Part shown: piece after piece, positions 1,636 through 29,295 of the stretch | Numbering within the stretch: the first letter of the stretch is position 1 | Layout: each line of letters opens with the position of its first letter | DNA from: an uncultured bacterium | GTDB taxonomy: Bacteria; Electryoneota; Electryoneia; Electryoneales; Electryoneaceae | DNA length: 64,000 nucleotides | Assembly: GCA_964552465.1 (NCBI GenBank) | Contig: CAZKGR010000019.1 | Coordinates: 1,619-65,618 of the forward strand | Reading direction: 5' to 3' | Made by a program: the position numbers and the translations under genes | The notes under the pieces: model-generated | The model's database searches: none | What the model was told of the DNA's origin: nothing | What the model saw: only the letters and a program-made list of their open reading frames with translations

Positions 1636-1959
1636 TCACCACCCAGAACATGTTAGCTCGACAGAATGCATCATTATTCTCGAGACAACGGAGGCACTTT
1701 TAGTGCCAGAGGAGCTAGACTTTCGAGCCAATATGACCTCTAAGTAACCCTCAATTAACACTTCATGTATTTCCGCAACATCTTGTTTAATCATAAGTAA
1801 CTCGTCACGAAACTTAAAGAACAGCTCACAATGAGAGCCTCCTGAGTCCCAATCCACTTGTTTCAAACAAAAAACACGAAACTCTTGCCCGCGTAAGACG
1901 AATGCATGGAAAACATGTATGAGTTTTGTTAGCTTGTGACGCAATTGGTTCAATGTCAA
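1636..1959 (-). CDS. Hypothetical protein (107 aa) in an AT-rich segment
   Basis: The ORF reads like a protein, but there is no motif and no SD. The local GC is clearly lower than the surroundings. It is convergent with the M48 gene. Confidence 0.25.
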   Translation of the reverse strand: MTLNQLRHKLTKLIHVFHAFVLRGQEFRVFCLKQVDWDSGGSHCELFFKFRDELLMIKQDVAEIHEVLIEGYLEVILARKSSSSGTKSASVVSRIMMHSVELTCSGW

Positions 1960-2045: not shown

Positions 2046-3413
2046 ATGGATCGGTTGAACCTGGCCGTTACAGGAAACGTTAAAGAGTCGATTGCAACCG
2101 TTATCGACGACTTGCTGAAGCAGGGGTGTACGGTTACAGCAATTGACAGCAGCTCCAACACCCCATCGTCCGGTGTGGACGCAGTATTGATCCCGATCTA
2201 CGCCGATGACCCACCTGATGTTTCCGATCACGGTTTCTTCAACGAATACCCTGCACCCCGTGTGCTGCTGGTGACAGAAAATGACCTGATTGGGAAGTAT
2301 GACCCTGTTTCGCTTGATGCGCAGGCGATGGTGTTTCCGCCACTTCACCCGGCCGCAGTACAGAACGCCATTCACACAGCAATTAGAATCTTCTCTCAGC
2401 ACGCTGTCCTTGAAGAGTCTCTGGCACACTATGTAGAAAGCCACCGCCATCTGGGCGAAGGTATTCTTCTCGCAGATAAACAGGGGATTGTTCGATTTGC
2501 GAACGATCTGAGCAAAAATATGCTCGGCCTGAACGAACGTGATATATACGGCCAGTCTATCGGTGATGTATTTCCAATCATAGATAAAGAATCGGAGAAT
2601 CCGCTTCACAGCATTAATGTCCCGTCGAACACGGAAAATGGTCAGCTTGTCAAGCCAAGCAGGACTACGGTCCGCGGAGGCGACGGACAATCAATGGAAG
2701 TGCTGTTCCAGGTGAAAACAGTGGGAGATGGGGACGAGCCGGACGGCATGATGCTCATTTTCCACGAATACAGGCTGCGCCAGAAACCGAAGCAGGTCGT
2801 TGCGTTCAAGGAAACACAAAGCGCTTCGTCTCCGCAGGACACGGAAGCCGACGATGGCTATATCCGGCATACTGTGCGAATTCAGACTTTCGGCGAATTT
2901 CAAATCAGCATAGACGACGAGCTGATAGATATTCACCGCTGGCGGTCCAAAAAGGCATTGGACGCGCTTTGCCTGCTACTTCATTCATATGGAAAACCAG
3001 TTCAGAAGGATATTCTGATTGATTTCCTATGGCCCGAAGTGGATGCGGCAACGGGAAACCGCCGGCTGCTGAATGTTATCAGCGAGTTGCGTAAATATCT
3101 CGAACCGGACGCACGCCGTTACTCCCGCAACAACTTCATCAGGCACGAATCCGGGATGTATCGACTAAGCTTCGAGGACTATGTTTACCTCGATTCTGCC
3201 TTGTTCAGAGACCTCATTCGCCAGGGTGACTATCACTGGGGCGTGGGTGAGTTCCGCATGGCACGGACATATTACCAGGAAGCACTGCAACACAAGAACG
3301 GCTTCTTTATGCCACGCTACATGAACTCGCTTCTGTTTGAAGAGGCTCGTGAACAGTATGAAGAAACTGAGGAGCGCATTCGAGAACGGTTGGGATTTGA
3401 GATGGAAAGCTAG
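2046..3413 (+). CDS. Transcriptional regulator: atypical (pseudo)receiver-like N-domain + PAS + SARP/OmpR-type winged-helix DNA-binding domain + short BTAD-like tail
   Basis: The C-terminal segment IQTFGEFQISIDDELIDIHRWRSKKALDALCLLLHSYGKPVQKDILIDFLWPE...LRKYLEP...GMYRL matches the Trans_reg_C/SARP (AfsR/DnrI-type) pattern. It is followed by a BTAD-like ...YYQEALQHKNGFFMP segment. The middle PAS segment is GILLADKQGIVRFANDL. The N-terminal alpha/beta domain lacks the canonical DD acid pocket of receivers. It is a paralog of 4982..6370. Confidence 0.8.
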   Translation: MDRLNLAVTGNVKESIATVIDDLLKQGCTVTAIDSSSNTPSSGVDAVLIPIYADDPPDVSDHGFFNEYPAPRVLLVTENDLIGKYDPVSLDAQAMVFPPLHPAAVQNAIHTAIRIFSQHAVLEESLAHYVESHRHLGEGILLADKQGIVRFANDLSKNMLGLNERDIYGQSIGDVFPIIDKESENPLHSINVPSNTENGQLVKPSRTTVRGGDGQSMEVLFQVKTVGDGDEPDGMMLIFHEYRLRQKPKQVVAFKETQSASSPQDTEADDGYIRHTVRIQTFGEFQISIDDELIDIHRWRSKKALDALCLLLHSYGKPVQKDILIDFLWPEVDAATGNRRLLNVISELRKYLEPDARRYSRNNFIRHESGMYRLSFEDYVYLDSALFRDLIRQGDYHWGVGEFRMARTYYQEALQHKNGFFMPRYMNSLLFEEAREQYEETEERIRERLGFEMES

Positions 3414-3751
3414 TTGTTTCAAGATATTAGCAGAATACGAGAAGGTACCTGGAATCGGAATGGTGTCACGACTGGGAAGTCATTAACGGCAGGGAGGCAT
3501 GTAATACAACCCTCAAACCGGTCGAGTTAGTTTCTGGTCTGTATGGACGATAAATCTTTGTTTGACAAGGATTTGAGAAGACCGACAGTGTATTTCGAAC
3601 ATTTGGAGCTTAACAGAGAATTAATTCGCAACCGATAATAGTTAGCACGGTTGAGATAAGCTCCGTAAGATAAATACTTGTGACGACGGTTTCAGATGGG
3701 ACAACGGGGGCTTCCCACTGAAATGCGGCAACGACAATCCTCTTAGCAGGA

Positions 3752-4480
3752 ATGAATATGAGGGCGAAAAGCACATCTGAAACACCGGAACTTGTGTCCA
3801 CAACATCGAATGTGAGCAGCGTACTGCAACCATCGCGTAAAGTGGATATTTTGCTGCGACGGATTGACCATATGGCAGAAGCGTGCCTGATTGTTGATCC
3901 TGGCGGCAAGATAGTTACCGCTAATCGCGAAGCAGGACGGCTGTTTCAGACCGATCATGACACACTGCTGGACCAATTGGTAACCGATCATTTGCTGATG
4001 AATGATGATCAGTTGCTGATGCCGGACGAGCAGTTGTTGATGGATGATTACGGTTATCCGTTGATCGTGGCGATGCGGGCTGACCACTCGTTCTTCCTCG
4101 CGCAATTACGCGGGGTCCGCATTATGATCAACGAGGTTGAACGCATCTTCCTGATGGTGTCGGATGCCAGCCTCGCTGCGCAGAAGGATGAGGAACGGGT
4201 TCGCATGATTCAACAGGAATCGGTGAACGTTATCCTCAACACCCTCGCGCACGAGATCAACAACCCGCTCATGATCATCCAGGCTATCGCTGACAGCATG
4301 CGTCTTGGATTCATCAGCGAGAATAGCCGGGACCGCAGCCTGCGTCAGATTATCGAACAGGTTCGCCGGATTAATTCCGCGCTGGAAGAGTTGCGAAAAA
4401 ATCCGGAACTGAAGGAAGTGACCTACCACGGTAAGCAAAACGTGTATCAACTGAAAACCGATCCACCACCGGAGTCATGA
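3752..4480 (+). CDS. PAS + HisKA (DHp) phosphoacceptor-domain protein lacking an HATPase_c domain (HisKA-only)
   Basis: PAS-like N-terminal half (ACLIVDPGGKIVTANREAGRLF). H-box LNTLAHEINNPLMIIQAIADSM. The ORF ends 80 aa later with no N/G1/G2 ATP-binding boxes. A strong terminator follows immediately. Confidence 0.7.
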   Translation: MNMRAKSTSETPELVSTTSNVSSVLQPSRKVDILLRRIDHMAEACLIVDPGGKIVTANREAGRLFQTDHDTLLDQLVTDHLLMNDDQLLMPDEQLLMDDYGYPLIVAMRADHSFFLAQLRGVRIMINEVERIFLMVSDASLAAQKDEERVRMIQQESVNVILNTLAHEINNPLMIIQAIADSMRLGFISENSRDRSLRQIIEQVRRINSALEELRKNPELKEVTYHGKQNVYQLKTDPPPES

Positions 4481-4505
4481 TCACCTTGATACCCTTGAAT
4501 TATAT

Positions 4506-4535
4506 AACCCGACTCAATTGAGTCGGGTTTTTCTT
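4506..4535 (+). terminator. Rho-independent terminator
   Basis: Perfect hairpin acccgactcAATTgagtcgggt followed by TTTTTCTT. Confidence 0.75.
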
Positions 4536-4981
4536 GCGGCATACTCATCTTCTTCCCAGTAGCGTCAGGTCGTTTTCGAACAAATCACACGGCAAGCTTG
4601 TTGCAAACAGCTTTGCACCGACTGTTTTCGTGCAATGGTCGAGGATGTGCCGGACGAACGACGAAAAACGGGTGACGCATCTTCATAACTATCAGCGCGG
4701 GACAGCAGCCACGCCCGCCTCATGCCTGACTCGAGAGAAGCGGTATGTTCCGACATTTCAACCAAATAGAAACATTTGGCAGTTTTATTATTTTGTCAGA
4801 TTGCTTTTTTTTGCTTGACTCCGAAAAATCCTCGACAGTACTTTCCACATCGAATGTGACTTTTATCGTATATTCTGCGATCAATATTTGCGCATGTATC
4901 GATGAATGAGGCTCAATACCCGCGCGCGGAGCAACTTGTTGTTTGACAGTTGTACAGACAAAGGCACCACGGAGGTTTGAT

Positions 4982-6370
4982 ATGGAGTCTTTCCACCTGG
5001 GGCTGGTGGGAGCAAAACATTCGTGCCATCCGCAACTGGTAGCTCAGCTCGAGGACGCCGGCTGTCGTGTCGACTGCTTGCCGGAATCAAAAAAGAAGGC
5101 GCTGGCCAAGCTCAATGAACTGCAACCTGACGTCGCGCTCTACATATACAACAAAGACACTTTCCGCGAAGCCGCAACCATCCTGAACGATGATCAACAG
5201 CACAGCCCCGTACCTTGGGTGCTGATTGTTGAAGATGAAACAGCGGTCAACAAGCTTCCTACCCAGTCTTTACACACGCACGGTATCCTCTTCTATCCAT
5301 TCCAGCCGCAGCAGATATCTGCGATGATTGAGCTCGCCATTCACCTGCACCGTAAAGAACGGTTAAAAGATGTAATATTATCCCATTACGTGGAAAGCCT
5401 GCGCAATGTGAATGAGGCGGTCATCCTGTCCGATCCCGGGGGGCAGGTACTGTTCGTGAACGAAAAAGCGATGCTGTTGACCGGATATGAGGATGCGAAC
5501 AAACGCCAGGTGGATCAAATTTTCCAAATTGAAGGCAACAAGAACTCCGGATCGAAACACCCCGTCTTACACACAATTCAAGAGTCGGATAACGGACACA
5601 GCTCATACCGCACTAGCCTTGCAAAACGAAACAAGGAAGCGTTACCGATTCAGTACCAGGTGAAACGAATCGAGAAAGAGAATGAAGTTCTTGGCGCATG
5701 CGTGCTGTTCCACGAAATCAAGGCACGTGCGACTGACCAATTAAACATCAGTCTGAATGAAACATCCAGCGACGAAGCCGCCAAGGAAGTTGTGGAAAAG
5801 GTCAAGCTGGCCCGTCCGGACGAAAACCGGGAAATGCGGATTCAGGTACGAACTTTTGGCGAATTTTCGTTGATGGTCGAGGGCAACCGCATCGAAACGA
5901 ACAAGTGGCGCTCGAAGAAAGCGCTCGATGTCTTCTCCTACCTGCTGCTTCATTACAGCCAGCCGGTGCACAAGGAAGTGCTGATCGATTTCCTGTGGCC
6001 GAATTTGGACACGCACACCGGCAATCGCCGCTTGCTGAACGCCGTCTCCGAGCTGCGCAAGTACCTCGAACCGGACGCGAAACGTTACGCCCGCAACGCC
6101 TTTGTCCGCCACGAATCAGGCGTCTACCGTCTCGATTTCGGCGAGAACGTGTACATTGACACGTTGGTCTTCCGTGAACTGGTCCGCAATGGCGACTACC
6201 AGTGGGCGACCAACCAGCAACGTATGGCGCGCACCTTTTACCTCGAAGCGTTGCAGCACAAGGACGGTCAGTTCCTCCCGCGCTATCTGTACGAACGTGA
6301 ATTCGAAGAAGCGCGTGAACAGTACGAGATTACCGAAAGTCGGCTCCGCGAACGCTTGGAACAGACCTGA
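4982..6370 (+). CDS. Transcriptional regulator, paralog of 2046..3413 (pseudo-receiver + PAS + SARP-type winged helix + BTAD-like)
   Basis: Same architecture and near-identical C-terminal winged-helix segment (RTFGEFSLMVEGNRIETNKWRSKKALDVFSYLLLHYSQPVHKEVLIDFLWP...LRKYLEP...GVYRL). I moved the start from 4943 to the ATG at 4982 (MESFHLGLVG aligns with MDRLNLAVTG of the paralog). A GGAGG SD sits 8 nt upstream. Confidence 0.8.
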   Translation: MESFHLGLVGAKHSCHPQLVAQLEDAGCRVDCLPESKKKALAKLNELQPDVALYIYNKDTFREAATILNDDQQHSPVPWVLIVEDETAVNKLPTQSLHTHGILFYPFQPQQISAMIELAIHLHRKERLKDVILSHYVESLRNVNEAVILSDPGGQVLFVNEKAMLLTGYEDANKRQVDQIFQIEGNKNSGSKHPVLHTIQESDNGHSSYRTSLAKRNKEALPIQYQVKRIEKENEVLGACVLFHEIKARATDQLNISLNETSSDEAAKEVVEKVKLARPDENREMRIQVRTFGEFSLMVEGNRIETNKWRSKKALDVFSYLLLHYSQPVHKEVLIDFLWPNLDTHTGNRRLLNAVSELRKYLEPDAKRYARNAFVRHESGVYRLDFGENVYIDTLVFRELVRNGDYQWATNQQRMARTFYLEALQHKDGQFLPRYLYEREFEEAREQYEITESRLRERLEQT

Positions 6371-6390
6371 TATTCGAGACTTGAGATGCG

Positions 6391-6430
6391 AGATACTTCG
6401 CGGGGACGCCTTTTTATGAGGGCGTCCCCG
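6391..6430 (+). terminator. Rho-independent terminator
   Basis: cggggacgcc TTTTTATGAG ggcgtccccg followed by TTTCATT. Confidence 0.7.
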
Positions 6431-6502
6431 TTTCATTATACATGCCCGTGTGAATCCATGAAATGATTCGCAGGATGATCAAACGCTTCTACGTTCGTCA
6501 AT

Positions 6503-6533
6503 CCGCGATAGCCGTCTTTGACGGCTATCGCGG
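6503..6533. promoter_or_regulatory. Perfect 13-bp inverted repeat (ccgcgatagccgt-ctttga-cggctatcgcgg) about 150 bp upstream of rmlA
   Basis: Seen directly in the sequence. No U-tract follows, so it may be an operator or an RNA hairpin. Confidence 0.4.
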
Positions 6534-6684
6534 GCACCATGCACTAGAGGCGCCGAACGTATCTCACACCCCTCACCCTAAGAGTTGCCAAGCCACCCGG
6601 ACAAAAGAGAGATCCTTCGCTACGCTCAGGATGACGCATAGAATCCCCTATATTCCACAATCGATCATCAACCCGGACATGCCC

Positions 6685-7569
6685 ATGAAAGGCATCATCC
6701 TCGCTGGCGGCAGCGGATCACGTCTGTTCCCCGCGACACGCAGCATCGTCAAGCAACTCCTGCCCATCTACGACAAGCCGATGATTTACTACCCGTTATC
6801 GGTGCTGATGCTGGCGAATATCCGCGAGGTGTTGATCATCTCGACACCGGAAGACACTGATCGCTTCGAAGCTCTATTCGGGGATGGGTCGCAGTTCGGG
6901 ATGCGCTTCGAATACGTAGTCCAGCCCGCGCCGGAAGGCTTGGCGCAAGCGTTCCTGTTAGGTGAGGATTTCCTCAACGGCGACGACGCGGTGCTGGTCC
7001 TCGGCGACAACATTTTCTATGGGCACGGGCTGGTAGAAACTCTCGTCCGAGCCTGTAGACGGGTTGAACAGGACCGCCGTTCAGTCGTTTTCGGTTATGC
7101 CGTGCAAGATCCGCAACGGTATGGCGTGGTCGAGTTCGATGTGACCGGGCGCGTCCTGTCTATCGAGGAGAAACCGTCCGCGCCGAAGAGCAATTATGCC
7201 GTCGTCGGACTGTATTTCTACACCAATGACGTTGTCGAGATCGCGAAGAACGTGAAACCATCCGAGCGGGGGGAGCTGGAGATCACTACAGTCAACCAAA
7301 CGTATCTCGACATGGACAAGCTGGATGTCGAGCTGTTGGGACGCGGGTACGCGTGGCTGGATACTGGCACACACGAGAGTCTGCTGGAAGCGTCGTTGTT
7401 TGTTCAGACCATCGAAAAACGGCAGGGGATGAAAATTTCGTGTATCGAAGAAATCGCGTACCGAAAGGGGTGGATTGACATTGACCGACTGAAGGCGCTT
7501 GCCGAACCGATGGCAAAGAACGAGTACGGGCAGTATCTGCTTCGTCTCGTGGACGGAAAAACTGTGTAG
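6685..7569 (+). CDS. rfbA: Glucose-1-phosphate thymidylyltransferase (RmlA/RfbA)
   Basis: [39 protein letters not shown]...[10 protein letters not shown] is the canonical RmlA N-terminus. I trimmed the start from the 6463 ORF to the ATG at 6685 (about 295 aa, the typical length). Confidence 0.9.
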
Positions 7570-7637
7570 GCAAATGTCATCGCCCGCGCCGGCATAGCCA
7601 ACACGGGCTAAAGATTCTCCACTATGTGTCCTGAATC

Positions 7638-7835
7638 TTACGCCTGGTCGACCTGATCCTTACAGGTGCTCAATCCGAAAGGCAGATACAATGGGCAGCG
7701 GCTAGTTGCCGCCGTTGCCAATGGAATAATCCCAACCGCACCCCACCAACTTTGGTAGTAAATCCCCACACCAATAATCACAACACCAAGAATCAAGCGG
7801 ATAATCCGATCAGCACCGCCCATATTCACCTTCAT
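7638..7835 (-). CDS. DUF2892 (YgaP-like) small inner-membrane protein
   Basis: Two TM segments and the conserved C-P-L-Y motif (SRCPLYLPFGLSTC) at the C-terminus. Confidence 0.7.
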   Translation of the reverse strand: MKVNMGGADRIIRLILGVVIIGVGIYYQSWWGAVGIIPLATAATSRCPLYLPFGLSTCKDQVDQA

Positions 7836-8071
7836 AATCTATCTCCTGTCGTGCAAAGTTACCCCCAACTGTATGCCATGTTAGATGCGGAACAAGGCGT
7901 GCGTTGTCCCTGAAAGAGTGGCAATATCCCGAATTGGAGACTTGATAGTTATATGACACCTTGGAGTATTCATCCGAACCTCCCTGCTGAAAAAGCCTGC
8001 CTCGGCGGACAAACCCGCAGGGGCACCTGATCGTTGTATCTTCCAGTCCAAACAAGTACACGTGGATTATC

Positions 8072-9178
8072 ATGACCCCGTTCTGGAAAAAGATTCGGCC
8101 CCGCAGCCGCTTGTTGCTGTTCGTGTTTCTCTCGGCGTTCATCGTGACGCAGGTGAGCTGGTGGGCGATCTACCAGACGCGAACTGCCGACCGCATAGCA
8201 TCGTTGCAGGAAGAGGTGTGGGAACGTGAGATCGGAGTCGCGGAACGTCTGATCGCGCAGCATGAATCAGTGATGTCGGACAGCTTGTTTGGAATGATGA
8301 ACGTGCTATTCGACGACTTGCGATTCGACGACGAATCAGCGCGTGTGGTTGTCAGCCACGAAGCGCGCGAACGGCTGGCATCTGAAACGACCGATGTCGC
8401 TCGCATGTTCGCGATGGAAAGCGCCACCTTCCTGATCATCATCCTCGCAGGAATGATTTACATGTACGTCACACTCCGCCGTGAAGTTCAGGTAGAAAGG
8501 CAATACGCAAATTTCCTTTCGGCAGTTACCCACGAATTGCGCAGTCCGGTGGCAGCACTTCGATTGTTGCAGGAAACGCTACATGGCGATCTCGCACCGG
8601 ACCAAAGATCGCAAGTACTAAGCAACATGGAGCGCAGTCTCGATCGGCTGCAAAACCTGATTGACCGCTTGCTGAAAACGCGTGAATTTACTGGCGATCG
8701 CCGCGCAACGAACGATCTGGAGCGTGCTGATCTGGGTGTGCTTTTAAAATCGGTAATACGCGACATCAACACTCATCACCCAATGGCAGGCGGACGGTTG
8801 ACGGTAGTTGCCGAAGATTCGGTGTTTGCTCGCGTTGACATTGAGCACTGGCGCATCATGGTCAGCAACCTGATTGATAATGCGCTGAAATACTCGAAGG
8901 CTGGCCGACCGATTACTATTTCGATGCAAAACGTCGGTAACAAAGCCACACTTGTTGTGAAGGATGACGGGGTTGGGTTTTCGATGGCGGAACGTCAACG
9001 TATCTTCAAACGATTCTATCGCATCGGCGATGAAAACACGCGGACGACTGACGGCAGCGGGCTTGGCTTGTACCTGGTGCGTGAGATAGCGCGGTCATTC
9101 CGTGGTAATGCGTGGGCATTCAGTGAAGGGCCGGGAAAAGGCGCGACATTCACTGTTCAGATCCCGCGGGCGAAATGA
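8072..9178 (+). CDS. Sensor histidine kinase (membrane-anchored, HisKA + HATPase_c)
   Basis: N-terminal TM segment. H-box LSAVTHELRSPVAAL. N-box LIDNALKYS. G boxes DDGVGF and GSGLGLYLV. Confidence 0.85.
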   Translation: MTPFWKKIRPRSRLLLFVFLSAFIVTQVSWWAIYQTRTADRIASLQEEVWEREIGVAERLIAQHESVMSDSLFGMMNVLFDDLRFDDESARVVVSHEARERLASETTDVARMFAMESATFLIIILAGMIYMYVTLRREVQVERQYANFLSAVTHELRSPVAALRLLQETLHGDLAPDQRSQVLSNMERSLDRLQNLIDRLLKTREFTGDRRATNDLERADLGVLLKSVIRDINTHHPMAGGRLTVVAEDSVFARVDIEHWRIMVSNLIDNALKYSKAGRPITISMQNVGNKATLVVKDDGVGFSMAERQRIFKRFYRIGDENTRTTDGSGLGLYLVREIARSFRGNAWAFSEGPGKGATFTVQIPRAK

Positions 9179-9229
9179 GACCTGAGATTCGAGAGACTAG
9201 AGACTAGAGACAAAAGACAAGAGACATTC

Positions 9230-9922
9230 ATGTCCCACCGAATACTGATAGTCGAAGACGACGAAGCGATTGCACTCGGACTGCAGATAAACTTGCAGCA
9301 CGACGGTTACAGCACTGAACTCGCTGTGGACGGCGAGGCCGCGTTGGTAAAAATCAGCGGGTGGAAGCCCGACCTGGTGCTGCTGGACGTTATGCTACCA
9401 AAACTAAGCGGATTCGACGTCTGCGAGCGAGTGCGGGACAGCGGTAATCGTGTTCCGATCCTGTTTCTCACAGCGAGAGATTTGCTCGACGACCGTCTTC
9501 AAGGGCTCGAGTTGGGTGGTGACGACTACATCACCAAACCGTTCTCGATGGATGAGCTGCGTGTTCGGATCAAGGCGATGCTGCGGCGACAAACGTGGTA
9601 CGAGGTCGTTCCGGATGTAGGAAGCAGCATCAACTTCGGCAGTAACACGGTAGACCTGTCTGCGTATCGCGCGACAACGCGCGAAGGTAAGGTTATGCTT
9701 ACCCAAAAAGAGACCATGGTACTCAAGTTACTAGTCGAGAACGAAGGCAAGGTGATTGATCGAGGCACGATTTTGAACAAAGTGTGGGGTGAGGAGATCT
9801 ACCCCAGCGGACGGACGGTTGACAACATCATCCTGAATCTTCGGCGACACTTTGAGGACGATCCGAAGAATCCACAACACATTTTCACCCACTACGGAGC
9901 CGGGTACTCGTTCCAGAGGTGA
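9230..9922 (+). CDS. OmpR/PhoB-family response regulator
   Basis: Receiver ILIVEDDE...LVLLDVMLP...YITKPF plus a C-terminal winged helix (LTQKETMVLKLLVENEGKVIDRGTILNKVWG). It lies 52 bp after the kinase gene. Confidence 0.9.
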   Translation: MSHRILIVEDDEAIALGLQINLQHDGYSTELAVDGEAALVKISGWKPDLVLLDVMLPKLSGFDVCERVRDSGNRVPILFLTARDLLDDRLQGLELGGDDYITKPFSMDELRVRIKAMLRRQTWYEVVPDVGSSINFGSNTVDLSAYRATTREGKVMLTQKETMVLKLLVENEGKVIDRGTILNKVWGEEIYPSGRTVDNIILNLRRHFEDDPKNPQHIFTHYGAGYSFQR

Positions 9923-9973
9923 ACACGGTAGAGATGTCCCTACTGACAACGAATATCCCATATCTTCCCTCCT

Positions 9974-10528
9974 ATGGACTGGCTTGACTCACTCCTGCTT
10001 CCTTTGTACAAGATCACTGGCGATCCAGCGACAGCGTTTTACGTGGGTACGTTTTTACTCGCGCTGATAGCGGCTGTAATCGGCGAGATTACTATTGTTG
10101 GGCTTTATCTCAGTAACAGCGCTGCATTCCAACGTTTGCACACCGAACTGTCCAAAACTCATATCCTGTCCATCGACGCTATCGAGCGAAATGACAAGAT
10201 TGCTTATGAGACTCACCACCGTAGAGCAAACACAGCGTTCACCAAAACAGTCGCATTACAAATGGCGTTAACCTTGGGTTCCTTGTGGCCGGTCTTTTTT
10301 GCTGCGGCATTCCTGAACACCGAGTTCGGCGATGTGCAATATCCTCTGTTCGGGCTAAATGTGCACATACACTACATCTTCATTTTTTTCATCTTCTACG
10401 GTCTGGCACGATTAGTACTTCATCCAGCGAAATATCTGATCCCCGGCATGCACCGCCTGAAGGATTCGTTGGATGACGCTCGGGCAAAGGCAAAAGAACT
10501 CGATTCGTTACTCACGGACGAGTCATAA
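9974..10528 (+). CDS. Hypothetical integral membrane protein (3-4 TM), third gene of the HK-RR unit
   Basis: Hydrophobic segments only, no motif. Same strand, 52 bp after the RR gene. Confidence 0.5.
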   Translation: MDWLDSLLLPLYKITGDPATAFYVGTFLLALIAAVIGEITIVGLYLSNSAAFQRLHTELSKTHILSIDAIERNDKIAYETHHRRANTAFTKTVALQMALTLGSLWPVFFAAAFLNTEFGDVQYPLFGLNVHIHYIFIFFIFYGLARLVLHPAKYLIPGMHRLKDSLDDARAKAKELDSLLTDES

Positions 10529-10559
10529 GCCTGACAAAGTCTAACGAGACACAATCCTA

Positions 10560-12776
10560 ATGCGCCGCCGCCGATCAACACGTCCACGGCATCAAAGACG
10601 CGGTAAATCACGTCCGCACAGCACCAAGTCTACCGCGCGCGGACAGGGTTTGCAGCAAGCGGTAGAATCCTTCTTCGAACAACGTCCGAATATAAGCTTC
10701 CGAACCCGTGACCTCGTGCGCGAATTTGCCTCAACACCTTCGGACGAAAAAGAGGTTCGCCGGATCATCCATGCGCTACATGCGGAAGGGCGATTAAAGC
10801 GAATCAAAGGCGAACGTTTCCAGCAGACAACAGATGAATCACCGCGAGCGGTGGGACGGATCGAACTTACCGAAAACGGCGCCGGTTTTGTCCGCATGTC
10901 TGACGGGGACGGCGACATTTTTGTGCAACCATCACGACTAATGGGTGCGCGGCACGGTGATCGTGTCGAAATCGCAATCACCGGCCGAGGACGTTACGGC
11001 AACCGTTCCGGACGCGTGATCCGTGTCGTCGAGCGGGATGATACTCCGGTTATCGGTCGGTTCATCGCCCTGCCGGGACGTGGCGGATTGGTTTACCCGG
11101 ATAACCCGCGGATTCCCGGTCCGGTACAGATCCTGGAAGGAAATCGGCGCGGTGCGAAGCACGACGACCGTGTGCAGGTGAAAGTCGACCCCCACATTCG
11201 CACTCCGCAGCGCCGGGTTGTGAGAATATTCGGTCATGTGGACGATTCTGACGCCCGATTTGCCGCACTGCTCGCCGAAGCCGGTTTTCCGGAAAACTTC
11301 TCCGCTGACGCACTTGCTGAAGCTGATGACAGCACCCTTGAGATCAACGAGCGCGAACTCGCCTTGAGGACTGATTTTCGTAACGACACTGTGATCACAA
11401 TTGATCCAGCATCGGCGAAGGATTTCGACGATGCGCTGAGTTTGACACGCTTGAAGAACGGTGATTATGAACTAGGCGTACATATCGCCGATGTCAGTTG
11501 GTATGTGAATGAAGGCGGGCTGCTGGACAAGGAAGCGCGCGCACGTGGAACCAGTGTCTACAGCTCGCATGGTACATCGCCTATGCTTCCGCACAGCCTG
11601 TCGTCCGATAAATGCAGCTTGGTAGAGGGTGAAGATCGACGGACCATGTCCGTGGTCATGACCATCACGCCAGACGGCAAAGTGATCAACGCGAAACCGT
11701 GCCGCAGTGTGATCCGATCCGCGCGACGCCTGACATACGCACAGGCGCAGACGATGATCGACGAAGGCCGACAAAAGTGGGGCGACGAACTTCCTACCCT
11801 ACGTAAAAACAGCATCGGCCCGCTCGTTTACCACCTGATGATACTGGCTGATGCCATGCGTAAGCGGCGTTTTCGTGGCGGAGGCCTGAATCTCGAATTG
11901 CCAGAGTACGAGGTAATCCTTGACGGCGCAAATGCTGTCGATTCAATTCAGAAACGCGTTGTACTCGAATCAAACCACCTGGTTGAAGAGTGCATGCTCG
12001 CTGCGAATCGGACGGTGACTGAATTTGTCAACCGGTCGCGTGAGAGTAATCCCCGAACGTTCGTTTTTCGCATCCACGACCGTCCTGAGCCAGATCGGCT
12101 TGAGGATCTTGTTGTCCAACTGGACGCGCTGAACATTGACTGGCCATTCAGCCGGACCAACCTCGAGAACCTGCGTTCAAAACAGCTTAACGACTGGTTG
12201 GAATCGCTGAACGCAAATCCGCTCGCCGAAATTATTCGCTACCTGATCCTGCGCGCGATGGCGAAAGCCGCTTATGACACGGAAAACATCGGTCATTACG
12301 GCCTCGGCTTCGTAAACTACACACACTTCACTAGCCCGATCCGGCGCTACCCGGACCTTATGGTGCATCGCATTCTGAATGCGATCCTGGATCGCAAGAC
12401 AAAATATGGACCAGACATTCGTCAACATCTACAGCGAATTTGCGACCTTGCCAGCGAAAGGGAACGTGCCGCCCAGATTGTCGAACGTAAATCACTGAGC
12501 ATTCGGCAGGCAGAATACTTCGCGCGGCAAGTTGGGGTCGAATTCAGCGGTTTGATCGTCGGCGCTATACCACGCGGCGTATTCGTTGAAATTGCCAATA
12601 CCGGTGCCCAGGGAATGATTCTCGCCGAAGATTTGGGCAATGTCTACTTTGACCGCGAGCTGCTTGGCTTCGTTGAAATAACCGGCGACAAGCTGTTCCG
12701 GCCAGGAATGAAATTGCAGGTTCGTGTCCTTTCGGCTGATCCCGACGCCGGTCGTTTCGAGCTGGAACCCGCCTGA
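10560..12776 (+). CDS. rnr: Ribonuclease R (RNB-family 3'-5' exoribonuclease, VacB)
   Basis: RNB signature HFTSPIRRYPDLMVHRIL. N-terminal HTH/cold-shock-like region and C-terminal S1 domain (GLIVGAIPRGVFVEI). Confidence 0.9.
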   Translation: MRRRRSTRPRHQRRGKSRPHSTKSTARGQGLQQAVESFFEQRPNISFRTRDLVREFASTPSDEKEVRRIIHALHAEGRLKRIKGERFQQTTDESPRAVGRIELTENGAGFVRMSDGDGDIFVQPSRLMGARHGDRVEIAITGRGRYGNRSGRVIRVVERDDTPVIGRFIALPGRGGLVYPDNPRIPGPVQILEGNRRGAKHDDRVQVKVDPHIRTPQRRVVRIFGHVDDSDARFAALLAEAGFPENFSADALAEADDSTLEINERELALRTDFRNDTVITIDPASAKDFDDALSLTRLKNGDYELGVHIADVSWYVNEGGLLDKEARARGTSVYSSHGTSPMLPHSLSSDKCSLVEGEDRRTMSVVMTITPDGKVINAKPCRSVIRSARRLTYAQAQTMIDEGRQKWGDELPTLRKNSIGPLVYHLMILADAMRKRRFRGGGLNLELPEYEVILDGANAVDSIQKRVVLESNHLVEECMLAANRTVTEFVNRSRESNPRTFVFRIHDRPEPDRLEDLVVQLDALNIDWPFSRTNLENLRSKQLNDWLESLNANPLAEIIRYLILRAMAKAAYDTENIGHYGLGFVNYTHFTSPIRRYPDLMVHRILNAILDRKTKYGPDIRQHLQRICDLASERERAAQIVERKSLSIRQAEYFARQVGVEFSGLIVGAIPRGVFVEIANTGAQGMILAEDLGNVYFDRELLGFVEITGDKLFRPGMKLQVRVLSADPDAGRFELEPA

Positions 12777-28491: not shown

Positions 28492-28719
28492 GGAATCTCA
28501 CGGGATAACACAGGAATACAACAGTTGCCGGTCAATATACTTAAAGCCGTCATGAAGATGCGGAGGATAATCGGATTGCGCAATTATTTCTGAGGCAGGA
28601 ACGTATTTGTAAACAACTAGAATCCAAAGAACTACCAAAGTCCCTGAGAGACACAAGCCCCAAACGAGATGGGGCTTGTCATGTTGGTTCAATGTGATTT
28701 CATGTCTAATGGGGATCGG

Positions 28720-29295
28720 CACAGCAACACTGTTACCCGGCGTGGAGCGATGGAAACGGATGTTTTTTGTTTGACCGCTCTCGCACCACGCGCGGGTCAT
28801 AACTTCTTGCCAGCGGTTGAGATTAGTCAACGTCGGCACACTTTTGCCTGGCGTAGCGCAGCGGATTCGGACGTTATGTTTGTTTGACCGTCCCCACGCC
28901 ACGCACAGGCCTGATTTCTCGCCAAACGTCGAACTTTCAACGTCGGCACACTTTTGCCTGGCGTAGCGCGGCGGATACGGACGTTGTGTTTGTTTGACCG
29001 TCCCCGCGCCACGCACAGGCCTATACTTATCGCTTGTCAAGCGAAGCGTCTTCTGATGATGACCGGATTCAAGCGATTGACTCAAAAGTTGCCTGGCGTG
29101 AACCGATGGAAACGGGGTCCAGTCGCCGAGTGTTGACCGTCCACGATCCACGCTCAGGCCTGAGATCTCTCTCCAGTCGAACTATATCCTGTCAAACAAC
29201 AGAACTGCTAAACTTTTGCCCGGTGCGGCGCGACGGTTACGGACCGTTGTTAGTGTTTGACCGACCCCGCACCACACACGGGCCAATTCCAATCC
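28720..29295. repeat. Tandem array of about five degenerate 110-140-bp palindromic units (core ...cttttgcctggcgtagcgc-N-cggac-N-tgtttgaccgtcc-ccgcgccacgcacaggcc)
   Basis: Unit cores (ttgaccg) sit at 28771, 28884, 28994, 29133 and 29257. The 5' arm gcctggcgtagcgcgg pairs with the 3' arm ccgcgccacgcacaggc in each unit. The array is intergenic between the two beta-helix paralogs. Confidence 0.75.

Follow-up and report, generated by a model that had tools for sequence, protein, structure and literature searches.

Receiver domains without the phosphorylatable aspartate make up ~4% of REC domains (PMC4395418). The switching of bacterial pseudo-receivers has been called an unsettled matter, almost all cases under study being orphans; it has been described that the ShkA pseudo-receiver binds a HisKA domain, that regulators can be activated allosterically by kinases and that WhiI and BldM form a pseudo-receiver heterodimer (PMC12632262). 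On the kinase side, 3.66% of the HisKA proteins in SMART have no HATPase, and the phosphatase motif is retained in 1.7% (PMC3591291). Pseudo-receiver regulators, HisKA proteins without a catalytic ATPase (CA) domain and SARP-type modules are thus all known already. Here we analyse a 64-kb stretch of DNA (the window) from an uncultured bacterium of the Electryoneaceae (contig CAZKGR010000019.1), in which two paralogous genes for pseudo-receiver regulators, regA and regB, flank mid, a gene for a kinase-like protein that itself lacks the CA domain.

The names regA, mid and regB designate three open reading frames (ORFs), all confirmed on the plus strand at the coordinates given by an earlier sequence-only reading of this DNA; positions below refer to the plus strand of the window unless marked (-) or assigned to another locus. 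regA (2046..3413, 455 amino acids (aa)) encodes a pseudo-receiver, a PAS domain, a SARP-type winged helix and half a BTAD domain, and its paralogue regB (4982..6370, 462 aa) has the same architecture. Between them, mid (3752..4480, 242 aa) encodes a soluble protein composed of a PAS domain and a dimerisation and histidine-phosphotransfer (DHp, HisKA) domain. The regA-mid and mid-regB gaps are 338 bp and 501 bp. We propose, with about even confidence, that this trio is a phosphorylation-independent derivative of a two-component system that would signal by binding.

Pseudo-receivers of the two regulators

Searches of 5.8 billion clusters returned about ten full-length relatives of the regulators. 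Orthologues of regA were found in five metagenome-assembled genomes (MAGs; 65-78% identical) and those of regB are 67-81% identical. A more distant group (P0009, P0021, P0027 and P0028), with ~30% identity to the window regulators, carries receivers that score 70-77 bits on PF00072 and have the canonical ED/D/T/K residues.

Neither regA nor regB has a match to Response_reg (PF00072) at E <= 1. Modelling of regA aa 1-125 using AlphaFold2 (AF2) gave a receiver fold (pLDDT 81, pTM 0.79) in which helices alpha2-alpha4 are degenerate and only alpha1 and alpha5 are well formed. When this model was searched with Foldseek, the best PDB match was the pseudo-receiver of AmiR (E = 3.5e-7, TM 0.71), followed by >40 REC domains, the matches ranging from E = 3.5e-7 to 4e-4. 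Alignment to the REC domains of the family using hhalign placed 100 columns in register (E = 2.2e-4).

The residues at each catalytic position were then compared between the REC-bearing relatives and the two paralogue groups. At the end of beta1, the acidic pair (EDE in the relatives) is replaced by TGN/SGS in the regA group and VGA/FGM in the regB group. At the end of beta3, the phospho-Asp segment MDIML (within PDLIxMDIML) reads IPIYA in regA, with Pro/Ala at the Asp position, and YIYNK in regB, with Ile/Leu/Met. The Lys at the end of beta5 (LKPF) gives way to Pro/Ala in regA (FPPL/FAPF) and to Tyr/His in regB (FYPF/FHPF), and the beta4 segment LTA, which holds the Thr, is deleted or realigned in both. 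In the window itself, the regA pseudo-receiver (2046..2414, aa 1-123) has TGN for the acidic pair and Pro at both the phospho-Asp and the Lys positions, and that of regB (4982..5371, aa 1-130) has Ile and Tyr at these two positions. No alternative Asp is conserved close to where beta3 ends; neither the DD of regA nor the N-K/E-D/N of regB is constant from one orthologue to another. As judged from the alignment, phosphorylation chemistry is lost in both paralogue groups and the Mg-binding pocket is absent. The receiver-like domain without an acidic pocket that the sequence-only reading had described is therefore borne out by the AF2 fold and by the alignment, which shows substitutions at the acidic pair, at the Asp and at the Lys.

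PAS domains and the SARP-type module

regA and regB align from end to end (37% identity, E = 3e-104). This alignment and the domain searches agree with the sequence-only reading, which had called the two genes paralogues with a shared order of pseudo-receiver, PAS domain, SARP-type winged helix and short BTAD-like tail. The identity is unevenly distributed: 20% in the pseudo-receiver, 25% in the PAS domain, 62% in the winged helix and 60% in the half BTAD. The presumed recognition helices, TGNRRLLNVISELRKYL in regA and TGNRRLLNAVSELRKYL in regB, are nearly identical.

Matches to Pfam and TIGR00229 support a PAS fold in all three proteins. The regA PAS domain (2445..2765, aa 134-240) scores 27.1 bits on Pfam PAS, above the cut-off. 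That of regB (5384..5719, aa 135-246) scores 24.2 bits on PAS_9 (cut-off 27), 20.7 on PAS and 23.1 on TIGR00229, and that of mid (3857..4147, aa 36-132) scores 24.0 bits on Pfam PAS and also matches PAS_9. With a full-length model of regA (pLDDT 65), the top 29 Foldseek matches were PAS/LOV-containing structures (best E about 1e-6 to 2e-6).

The OmpR/SARP-type winged helix of regA (2886..3170, aa 281-375) and that of regB (aa 291-385, within 5852..6358) score 20.9 and 20.3 bits on Trans_reg_C, both below the cut-off of 26.2 bits. NCBIfam gave weak matches to the SARPs BagI/FevR and AfsR, spanning the winged helix into the start of BTAD. An exhaustive phmmer search of 1.84 billion cluster representatives, with the last 181 aa of regA as query, gave 2,919 matches at E <= 1e-3, seven of them at E <= 1e-30. 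Trans_reg_C together with BTAD was found in 26 of the next 30 relatives (1e-17 to 1e-10), so the winged-helix/BTAD identity proposed from the sequence survived this check. The number of relatives also shows that the sequence-only reading overstated its case in regarding a SARP module outside actinobacteria as unusual; what is rare is the fusion of a REC or pseudo-REC domain, a PAS domain and a SARP-type module, a family that counts seven clusters at E <= 1e-30. A profile search of the PDB with the C-terminal module gave EmbR as the best, weak match (E = 0.076), with ToxR and CadC also weak; the corresponding single-sequence search returned noise only.

The Pfam search gave no BTAD (PF03704) match in regA or regB. 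Alignment with full-BTAD proteins shows that the window proteins and all close relatives end at about BTAD position 70; the segments concerned are 3171..3395 in regA (aa 376-450, approximately positions 1-70 of the 146-position profile) and aa 386-459 in regB, which completes the 5852..6358 module. Family members P0030 and P0028 match BTAD positions 2-70 and 1-59, respectively, and regA has a TPR_2 match at aa 390-416. Since the alignments stop at about position 70, the C-terminus of regA and regB is, on this sequence comparison, a SARP-type winged helix followed by half a BTAD.

The mid protein

The DHp four-helix bundle of mid (4199..4399, aa 150-216) scores 27.2 bits on Pfam HisKA (cut-off 26.9). 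Its H-box reads LAHEINNPL, with the codon of His167 at 4250..4252, and the HE/DxxN/T phosphatase motif, as defined in PMC3591291, is intact (H167-E-I-N-N171). Only 26 residues follow DHp helix 2. HATPase_c has no match in mid or in any of its orthologues, no remnant of a kinase ATPase is found downstream of mid in any frame, and no stand-alone HATPase or CA-only ORF occurs within the window, where the complete kinase 8072..9178 is the sole ATPase-bearing case. These searches agree with the description of mid, in the sequence-only reading, as a PAS + DHp protein without an ATPase. Neither does mid conform to the Spo0B/ChpT type of phosphotransferase, as it has no CA-like domain and both neighbouring receivers are without Asp.

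To assess conservation, we aligned eight mid sequences (seven orthologues and the window copy). All orthologues are 240-252 aa long and 81-95% identical, with a mean column identity of 85%. In L001 and L002, the related genomes with the best sampling, mid is 88% and 82% identical to the window copy, and the downstream RmlA homologue is 88% and 90% identical; the corresponding values are 77% and 67% for regA, 81% and 72% for regB, and 74% and 66% for the nearby classical kinase. On this evidence mid is a selected full-length gene that is subject to very strong purifying selection. H-E-x-x-N is kept in seven of the eight sequences. The remaining one, P0016, comes from a 3.5-kb contig of JGI sample 3300072015 that also encodes a 462-aa regB; this orthologue is 92% identical and carries Leu where the H-box His is expected (LALEINNPL), a change that, on a single metagenome contig, may be genuine or may stem from a sequencing error.

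An internal peptide repeat, DDQLLMPDEQLLMDD, lies in the mid PAS domain (4004-4048, aa 85-99) and is almost invariant among orthologues. This region of a PAS domain usually forms the helical or ligand pocket.

Sister systems and gene linkage

All four REC-bearing members of the family lie directly downstream of a complete HisKA_2/HATPase_c kinase (PAS/HisKA_2/HATPase), and in L003 and L009 the kinase gene and the regulator gene have one base in common. The REC-bearing sister regulators are translationally coupled to complete kinases. Because all four follow a complete kinase, the ancestral state was a classical kinase/regulator pair, and the clade of the window is a derived, phospho-dead form. 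The latter has two pseudo-receiver paralogues and no full kinase adjacent; mid stands just downstream of regA instead. The H-box of mid is of the HisKA type and the kinases of the intact relatives are of the HisKA_2 type, so that mid is a non-orthologous replacement, not a truncated ancestral kinase.

Adjacency of regA and mid was observed in every genome seen, that is, in the window, L001, L006, L005, L004/L015 and L016 (BMS3Bbin04), and mid-like proteins were found only in genomes with the pseudo-receiver paralogues. In the window, L001 and the P0016 contig, regB is adjacent. A cluster of four genes on the opposite strand comes between mid and regB in L002/L006. This cluster is found immediately upstream of regB in L007 (MAG87) as well, at the edge of the contig, the regA-mid pair of MAG87 being on another contig (L005). 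In BMS3Bbin04 and L008, regB is not linked to regA-mid. Linkage of regB is therefore looser than that between regA and mid.

The secretin cluster

The four-gene cluster encodes a GspD/MshL/PilQ-like secretin with N-terminal TPR and two paralogous proteins of ~215-230 aa with N-termini that resemble signal peptides by eye and no family match. Its fourth product, of 544 aa, gives weak WxLIP_PGBD and Fn3 signals. Neither ATPase nor pilin genes were seen. Its coordinates are 2065-7224 (-) in L002, 12856-18054 in L006, 231-5576 (-) in L007, 771-6055 (+) in L003 and 6485-10604 (+) in L019. A homologous cluster, with a secretin 35-44% identical, adjoins intact kinase/regulator pairs in L003/L010 and L019. 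As the cluster is found beside a regulator in four loci from three lineages (L002/L006, L007, L003/L010 and L019), it is likely to be the target of the regulators. In the window and L001, it has been lost from the trio position, and no copy occurs elsewhere in the 64 kb.

L019 (113-11607) begins with a histidine kinase (HK; REC-PAS-HisKA_2-HATPase), a first response regulator (RR1), a 307-aa protein rich in His, Asp and Gly, and a 145-aa protein. It continues with a 211-aa protein, the 544-aa protein, the secretin and a second canonical REC-PAS gene that is cut by the contig end. This order of HK, RR1, cluster and second REC-PAS gene mirrors that of regA, mid, cluster and regB in L006, suggesting that two regulators flanking the cluster may be an old arrangement. 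The sequence-only reading had noted neither the sister systems with full HisKA_2 kinases, nor the recurrent secretin cluster, nor the contrast between the close regA-mid linkage and the loose linkage of regB.

Gene starts, terminators and candidate cis-elements

The true start of mid may be ATG 3758, since orthologues of 240 aa are found. For regB, the ORF can formally be extended to TTG 4943; ATG 4982 is the likely start because a GGAGG 7 nt upstream of it is invariant in five genomes. Downstream of mid is an intrinsic terminator (hairpin 4506..4529, feature 4506..4536) of sequence AACCCGACTC-AATT-GAGTCGGGTT followed by a T run. With 10 perfect pairs in the stem and a 4-nt loop, it is as perfect as the sequence-only reading had stated, and a similar hairpin is kept in L001. 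A second intrinsic terminator, with 14 pairs, follows regB at 6400..6431.

Conserved blocks were identified in both intergenic regions. A 30-nt block upstream of mid (3492..3521), GGAGnCGTGTAATACAnCnGTCnAACCG, has a palindromic core, TGTAATACA, and is shared by five genomes, making it a candidate operator or promoter element. In the mid leader, a hairpin of the form TTTCAG...CTGAAA (3690..3723) was predicted by RNAalifold with 11 pairs, four of them compensatory, over five genomes, a weak signal. Upstream of regB, a promoter-like block (4814..4846), CTTGACTnCGAAAAnnnCTCGACnGTAnTTTCC, is nearly invariant in five genomes and contains CGA at 11-bp spacing. SARPs bind direct repeats at 11/22-bp spacing that end 8 bp from the -10 element (PMC10936776). 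Compared with this rule, the regB block has its CGA at 11 bp and the other conserved blocks are palindromic, without statistical support for either. A perfect TTGTAcTACAA palindrome occurs once in the divergent intergenic region between secretin and regB, at 18234-18244 in L006 (L002/L006) and 5604-5614 in L007. The 10-mer TTGTTTGACA occurs exactly three times in the 64 kb, including upstream of mid (3558-3567) and of regB (4939-4948); a copy with one mismatch is part of the palindrome TTGTTTCAAACAA upstream of regA (1861-1870 (-)). The 10-mer is only partly conserved in orthologous regions. An Rfam scan of the window gave no matches.

The remaining exact copy of TTGTTTGACA (29190-29199 (-)) is near a 110-bp tandem repeat (28752-29033; 2.5 copies, 81% matches) with TTGTTTGACC in each copy. 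The repeat sits within a listed minus-strand ORF (28498..29151), which is perhaps not a genuine gene.

Interpretation and rival explanations

If the trio signals by binding, regA and regB would both activate transcription from identical or closely similar DNA sites, as their recognition helices are nearly identical. They would respond to different inputs, given that the pseudo-receiver and PAS halves are only 20-25% identical, so that two sensors would feed one DNA specificity. With the canonical phospho-site absent in both, their activity would be set through their own PAS domains, dimerisation or contact with a protein partner instead of Asp phosphorylation. We propose mid as this partner because it always adjoins regA, is confined to the pseudo-receiver clade and is unusually strongly conserved, and because the pseudo-receiver has an AmiR-like fold. 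In complexes of the HK853-RR468 type, alpha1 and alpha5 of the receiver contact the DHp domain. mid may accordingly be pictured as a PAS-regulated dimeric helix bundle that docks on the alpha1/alpha5 face of the regA (perhaps also the regB) pseudo-receiver, with the old kinase-receiver interface serving as a binding-only switch that either sequesters the regulator or activates it allosterically. Likely targets would be the promoters of regA and regB themselves and the secretin cluster of four genes found beside the regulators in related genomes. More tentatively, and with clearly less confidence than in signalling by binding as such, we consider a 'ghost' two-component system, with no ATPase and no acceptor Asp, in which DHp-receiver docking has become a pure protein switch and a PAS-gated DHp dimer partitions between two paralogous activators that compete for shared promoters and control a hitherto undescribed secretin-dependent surface or secretion apparatus of an uncultured marine lineage.

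Several observations weigh against signalling by binding. The H-E-x-x-N of mid, intact in seven of eight sequences, fits phosphoryl chemistry with partners encoded elsewhere, and the Leu of P0016, a hint of a phosphorylation-free mid, is possibly an error. Docking between mid and a receiver would not have been inherited by descent, given the HisKA type of mid and the HisKA_2 type of the sister kinases. regA and mid may not be co-transcribed, as 338 bp with conserved blocks lie between them. The family sequences are too few for co-variation analysis, and direct binding of mid to a regulator is inferred. Neither the window nor L001 has the secretin cluster, and the flanks of L008 and L009 lack it too. 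The cis-motifs are leads without statistical weight, the TGTAnTACA palindrome being suggestive but thin.

The sequence-only reading had favoured a non-canonical phosphorelay or a phosphatase/partner-switch circuit over a classical two-component pair. The departure from a classical kinase/regulator pair stands. A local phosphorelay is disfavoured, because neither neighbour can accept a phosphoryl group; for the same reason, either a binding-only partner or a role of mid with proteins encoded elsewhere is favoured. We regard the second of these as the lesser but still credible possibility. In it, mid would perform phosphoryl chemistry with distant partners, as the DHp half of a split kinase, as a dedicated phosphatase or as a His-phosphotransfer protein that serves a canonical response regulator, leaving regA and regB as PAS-controlled one-component regulators; a split-kinase mid would be phosphorylated in trans by a CA-only protein or form a heterodimer with a full kinase. 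Its H-E-I-N-N matches the HE/DxxN/T phosphatase motif, proteins with HisKA and without CA are recognised (PMC3591291), His167 is present in all but one of the eight sequences, split kinases such as CheA3/CheA4 and Hik36-Hik43 are documented, and mid has its own conserved upstream blocks and terminator. Such a role is harder to reconcile with the strict position of mid beside regA, its confinement to the pseudo-receiver clade and the orthologue without His; moreover, the 64-kb window holds no CA-only ORF, and the one kinase near the trio, the complete 8072..9178, already pairs with an OmpR-type regulator of its own. A relay that runs cryptically from His167 of mid to a non-canonical residue, or by a non-canonical route, in the regulators would make use of the retained His167 and HExxN. 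We consider it very improbable: both paralogue groups have other residues in place of the acidic pair, the Asp and the Lys, there is neither a conserved alternative Asp near the end of beta3 nor a Mg-binding pocket, and mid, being without a CA domain, could not autophosphorylate.

It is also conceivable, though we think it unlikely, that there is no direct coupling at all, and that the three genes are neighbours only through descent and shared regulation, with regA and regB constitutively dimeric or ligand-controlled and mid acting in another pathway. That regB stands apart from the regA-mid pair both in BMS3Bbin04 and in the MAG DRR093004 would agree with this, as would the long gaps of 338 and 501 bp and the fact that pseudo-receiver regulators, where characterised, mostly act by themselves as orphans (PMC12632262). 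Yet adjacency of regA and mid survives ~35% protein divergence while the surroundings change, mid is more conserved than regA or regB, and the L006 layout of regulator, kinase-like gene, cluster and regulator mirrors the intact HK-RR1-cluster-RR2 of L019. The absence of a catalytic domain could finally mean that mid is a decaying kinase fragment, that is, a frameshifted or truncated pseudogene. This we practically discount, since orthologues of 240-252 aa are 81-95% identical, the terminator just downstream is conserved and no CA-like sequence follows in any frame; a frameshifted kinase was rejected on the conservation data and the absent CA remnant, and related genomes, where the sequence-only reading had left room for a full-length kinase, contain none in place of mid.

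The locus offers a pseudo-receiver regulator that is conserved and always has a kinase-like gene beside it, the intact sister lineages provide a natural before-and-after pair for the question of how binding replaces phosphotransfer, and the secretin cluster provides a candidate regulon. In addition, the conservation of mid indicates that HisKA proteins without CA can be selected as strongly as core enzymes and should not be annotated off as broken kinases.

Neighbouring genes

The family loci belong to uncultured marine MAGs, and Por_Secre_tail genes, an M48 peptidase gene, RmlA and the secretin cluster are found near them. In the window, regB is followed by the RmlA homologue (glucose-1-phosphate thymidylyltransferase, NTP_transferase), whose listed ORF (6463-7569, 368 aa) is probably over-extended at the 5' end; its orthologues have been annotated with 294 aa, so that the start in the window would be near 6685. 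Next come a HisKA/HATPase kinase (8072..9178) and an OmpR-type regulator (9230..9922), a classical pair conserved in syntenic genomes. In L001, genes for a TonB-dependent receptor and HmuY are inserted between RmlA and this pair. The kinase 8072..9178 was tried as a partner of the trio and rejected: it forms a conserved pair with 9230..9922 and is separated from the trio by RmlA and, in L001, by the TonB-receptor/HmuY genes as well.

Comparison with known systems

Literature searches gave no earlier description, and we know of none, of a REC or pseudo-REC domain combined with PAS and a SARP-type module with half a BTAD, of phospho-dead regulators paired with a strongly selected phospho-dead kinase relic, or of a link between such regulators and this uncharacterised secretin cluster.

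The output half of regA and regB resembles the SARPs AfsR, EmbR, DnrI and ActII-ORF4 (PMC10936776), in which an OmpR-type winged helix is directly followed by BTAD. It differs in having only ~70 of the 146 BTAD positions and in lying C-terminal to the sensor domains, not N-terminal; moreover, the host of regA and regB is not actinobacterial, and the genes are not part of a biosynthetic gene cluster. mid is comparable to CheA3/CheA4 of R. sphaeroides, Hik36-Hik43 of Synechocystis and the HisKA-only proteins, in that a DHp domain with His and HExxN stands on a protein that has no ATPase (PMC3591291, PMC7656254). Unlike in the split kinases, no partner CA protein was found near mid in the window, and both regulators are without the acceptor Asp.

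ChxR, HP1043, RitR and CmrT, like regA and regB, couple a winged helix to a receiver fold in which the catalytic residues are missing, and they are phosphorylation-independent (PMC12632262, PMC4395418, PMC3960148). CmrT is, like regA, among the few encoded beside two-component partners. In our locus, by contrast, a PAS domain intervenes, the output is of the SARP type with half a BTAD, the regulator occurs as two paralogues and the kinase-like protein next to it is itself without a catalytic domain. In the DivL-DivK system, a receiver-type domain docks on a DHp bundle as a regulatory contact. The contacts of ShkA and of DivL-DivK are made within or on catalytically competent kinase pathways, whereas here neither side appears able to carry out phosphotransfer.

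AmiR of P. aeruginosa (PDB 1qo0) has an RNA-binding ANTAR output and no PAS domain, and its partner AmiC has a periplasmic-binding-protein fold, not a PAS-DHp architecture. It shares with regA an N-terminal pseudo-receiver that is not phosphorylated and a long alpha5 coiled coil, and it is controlled through binding and sequestration by a separate ligand-sensing protein, a role like the one we propose for mid.

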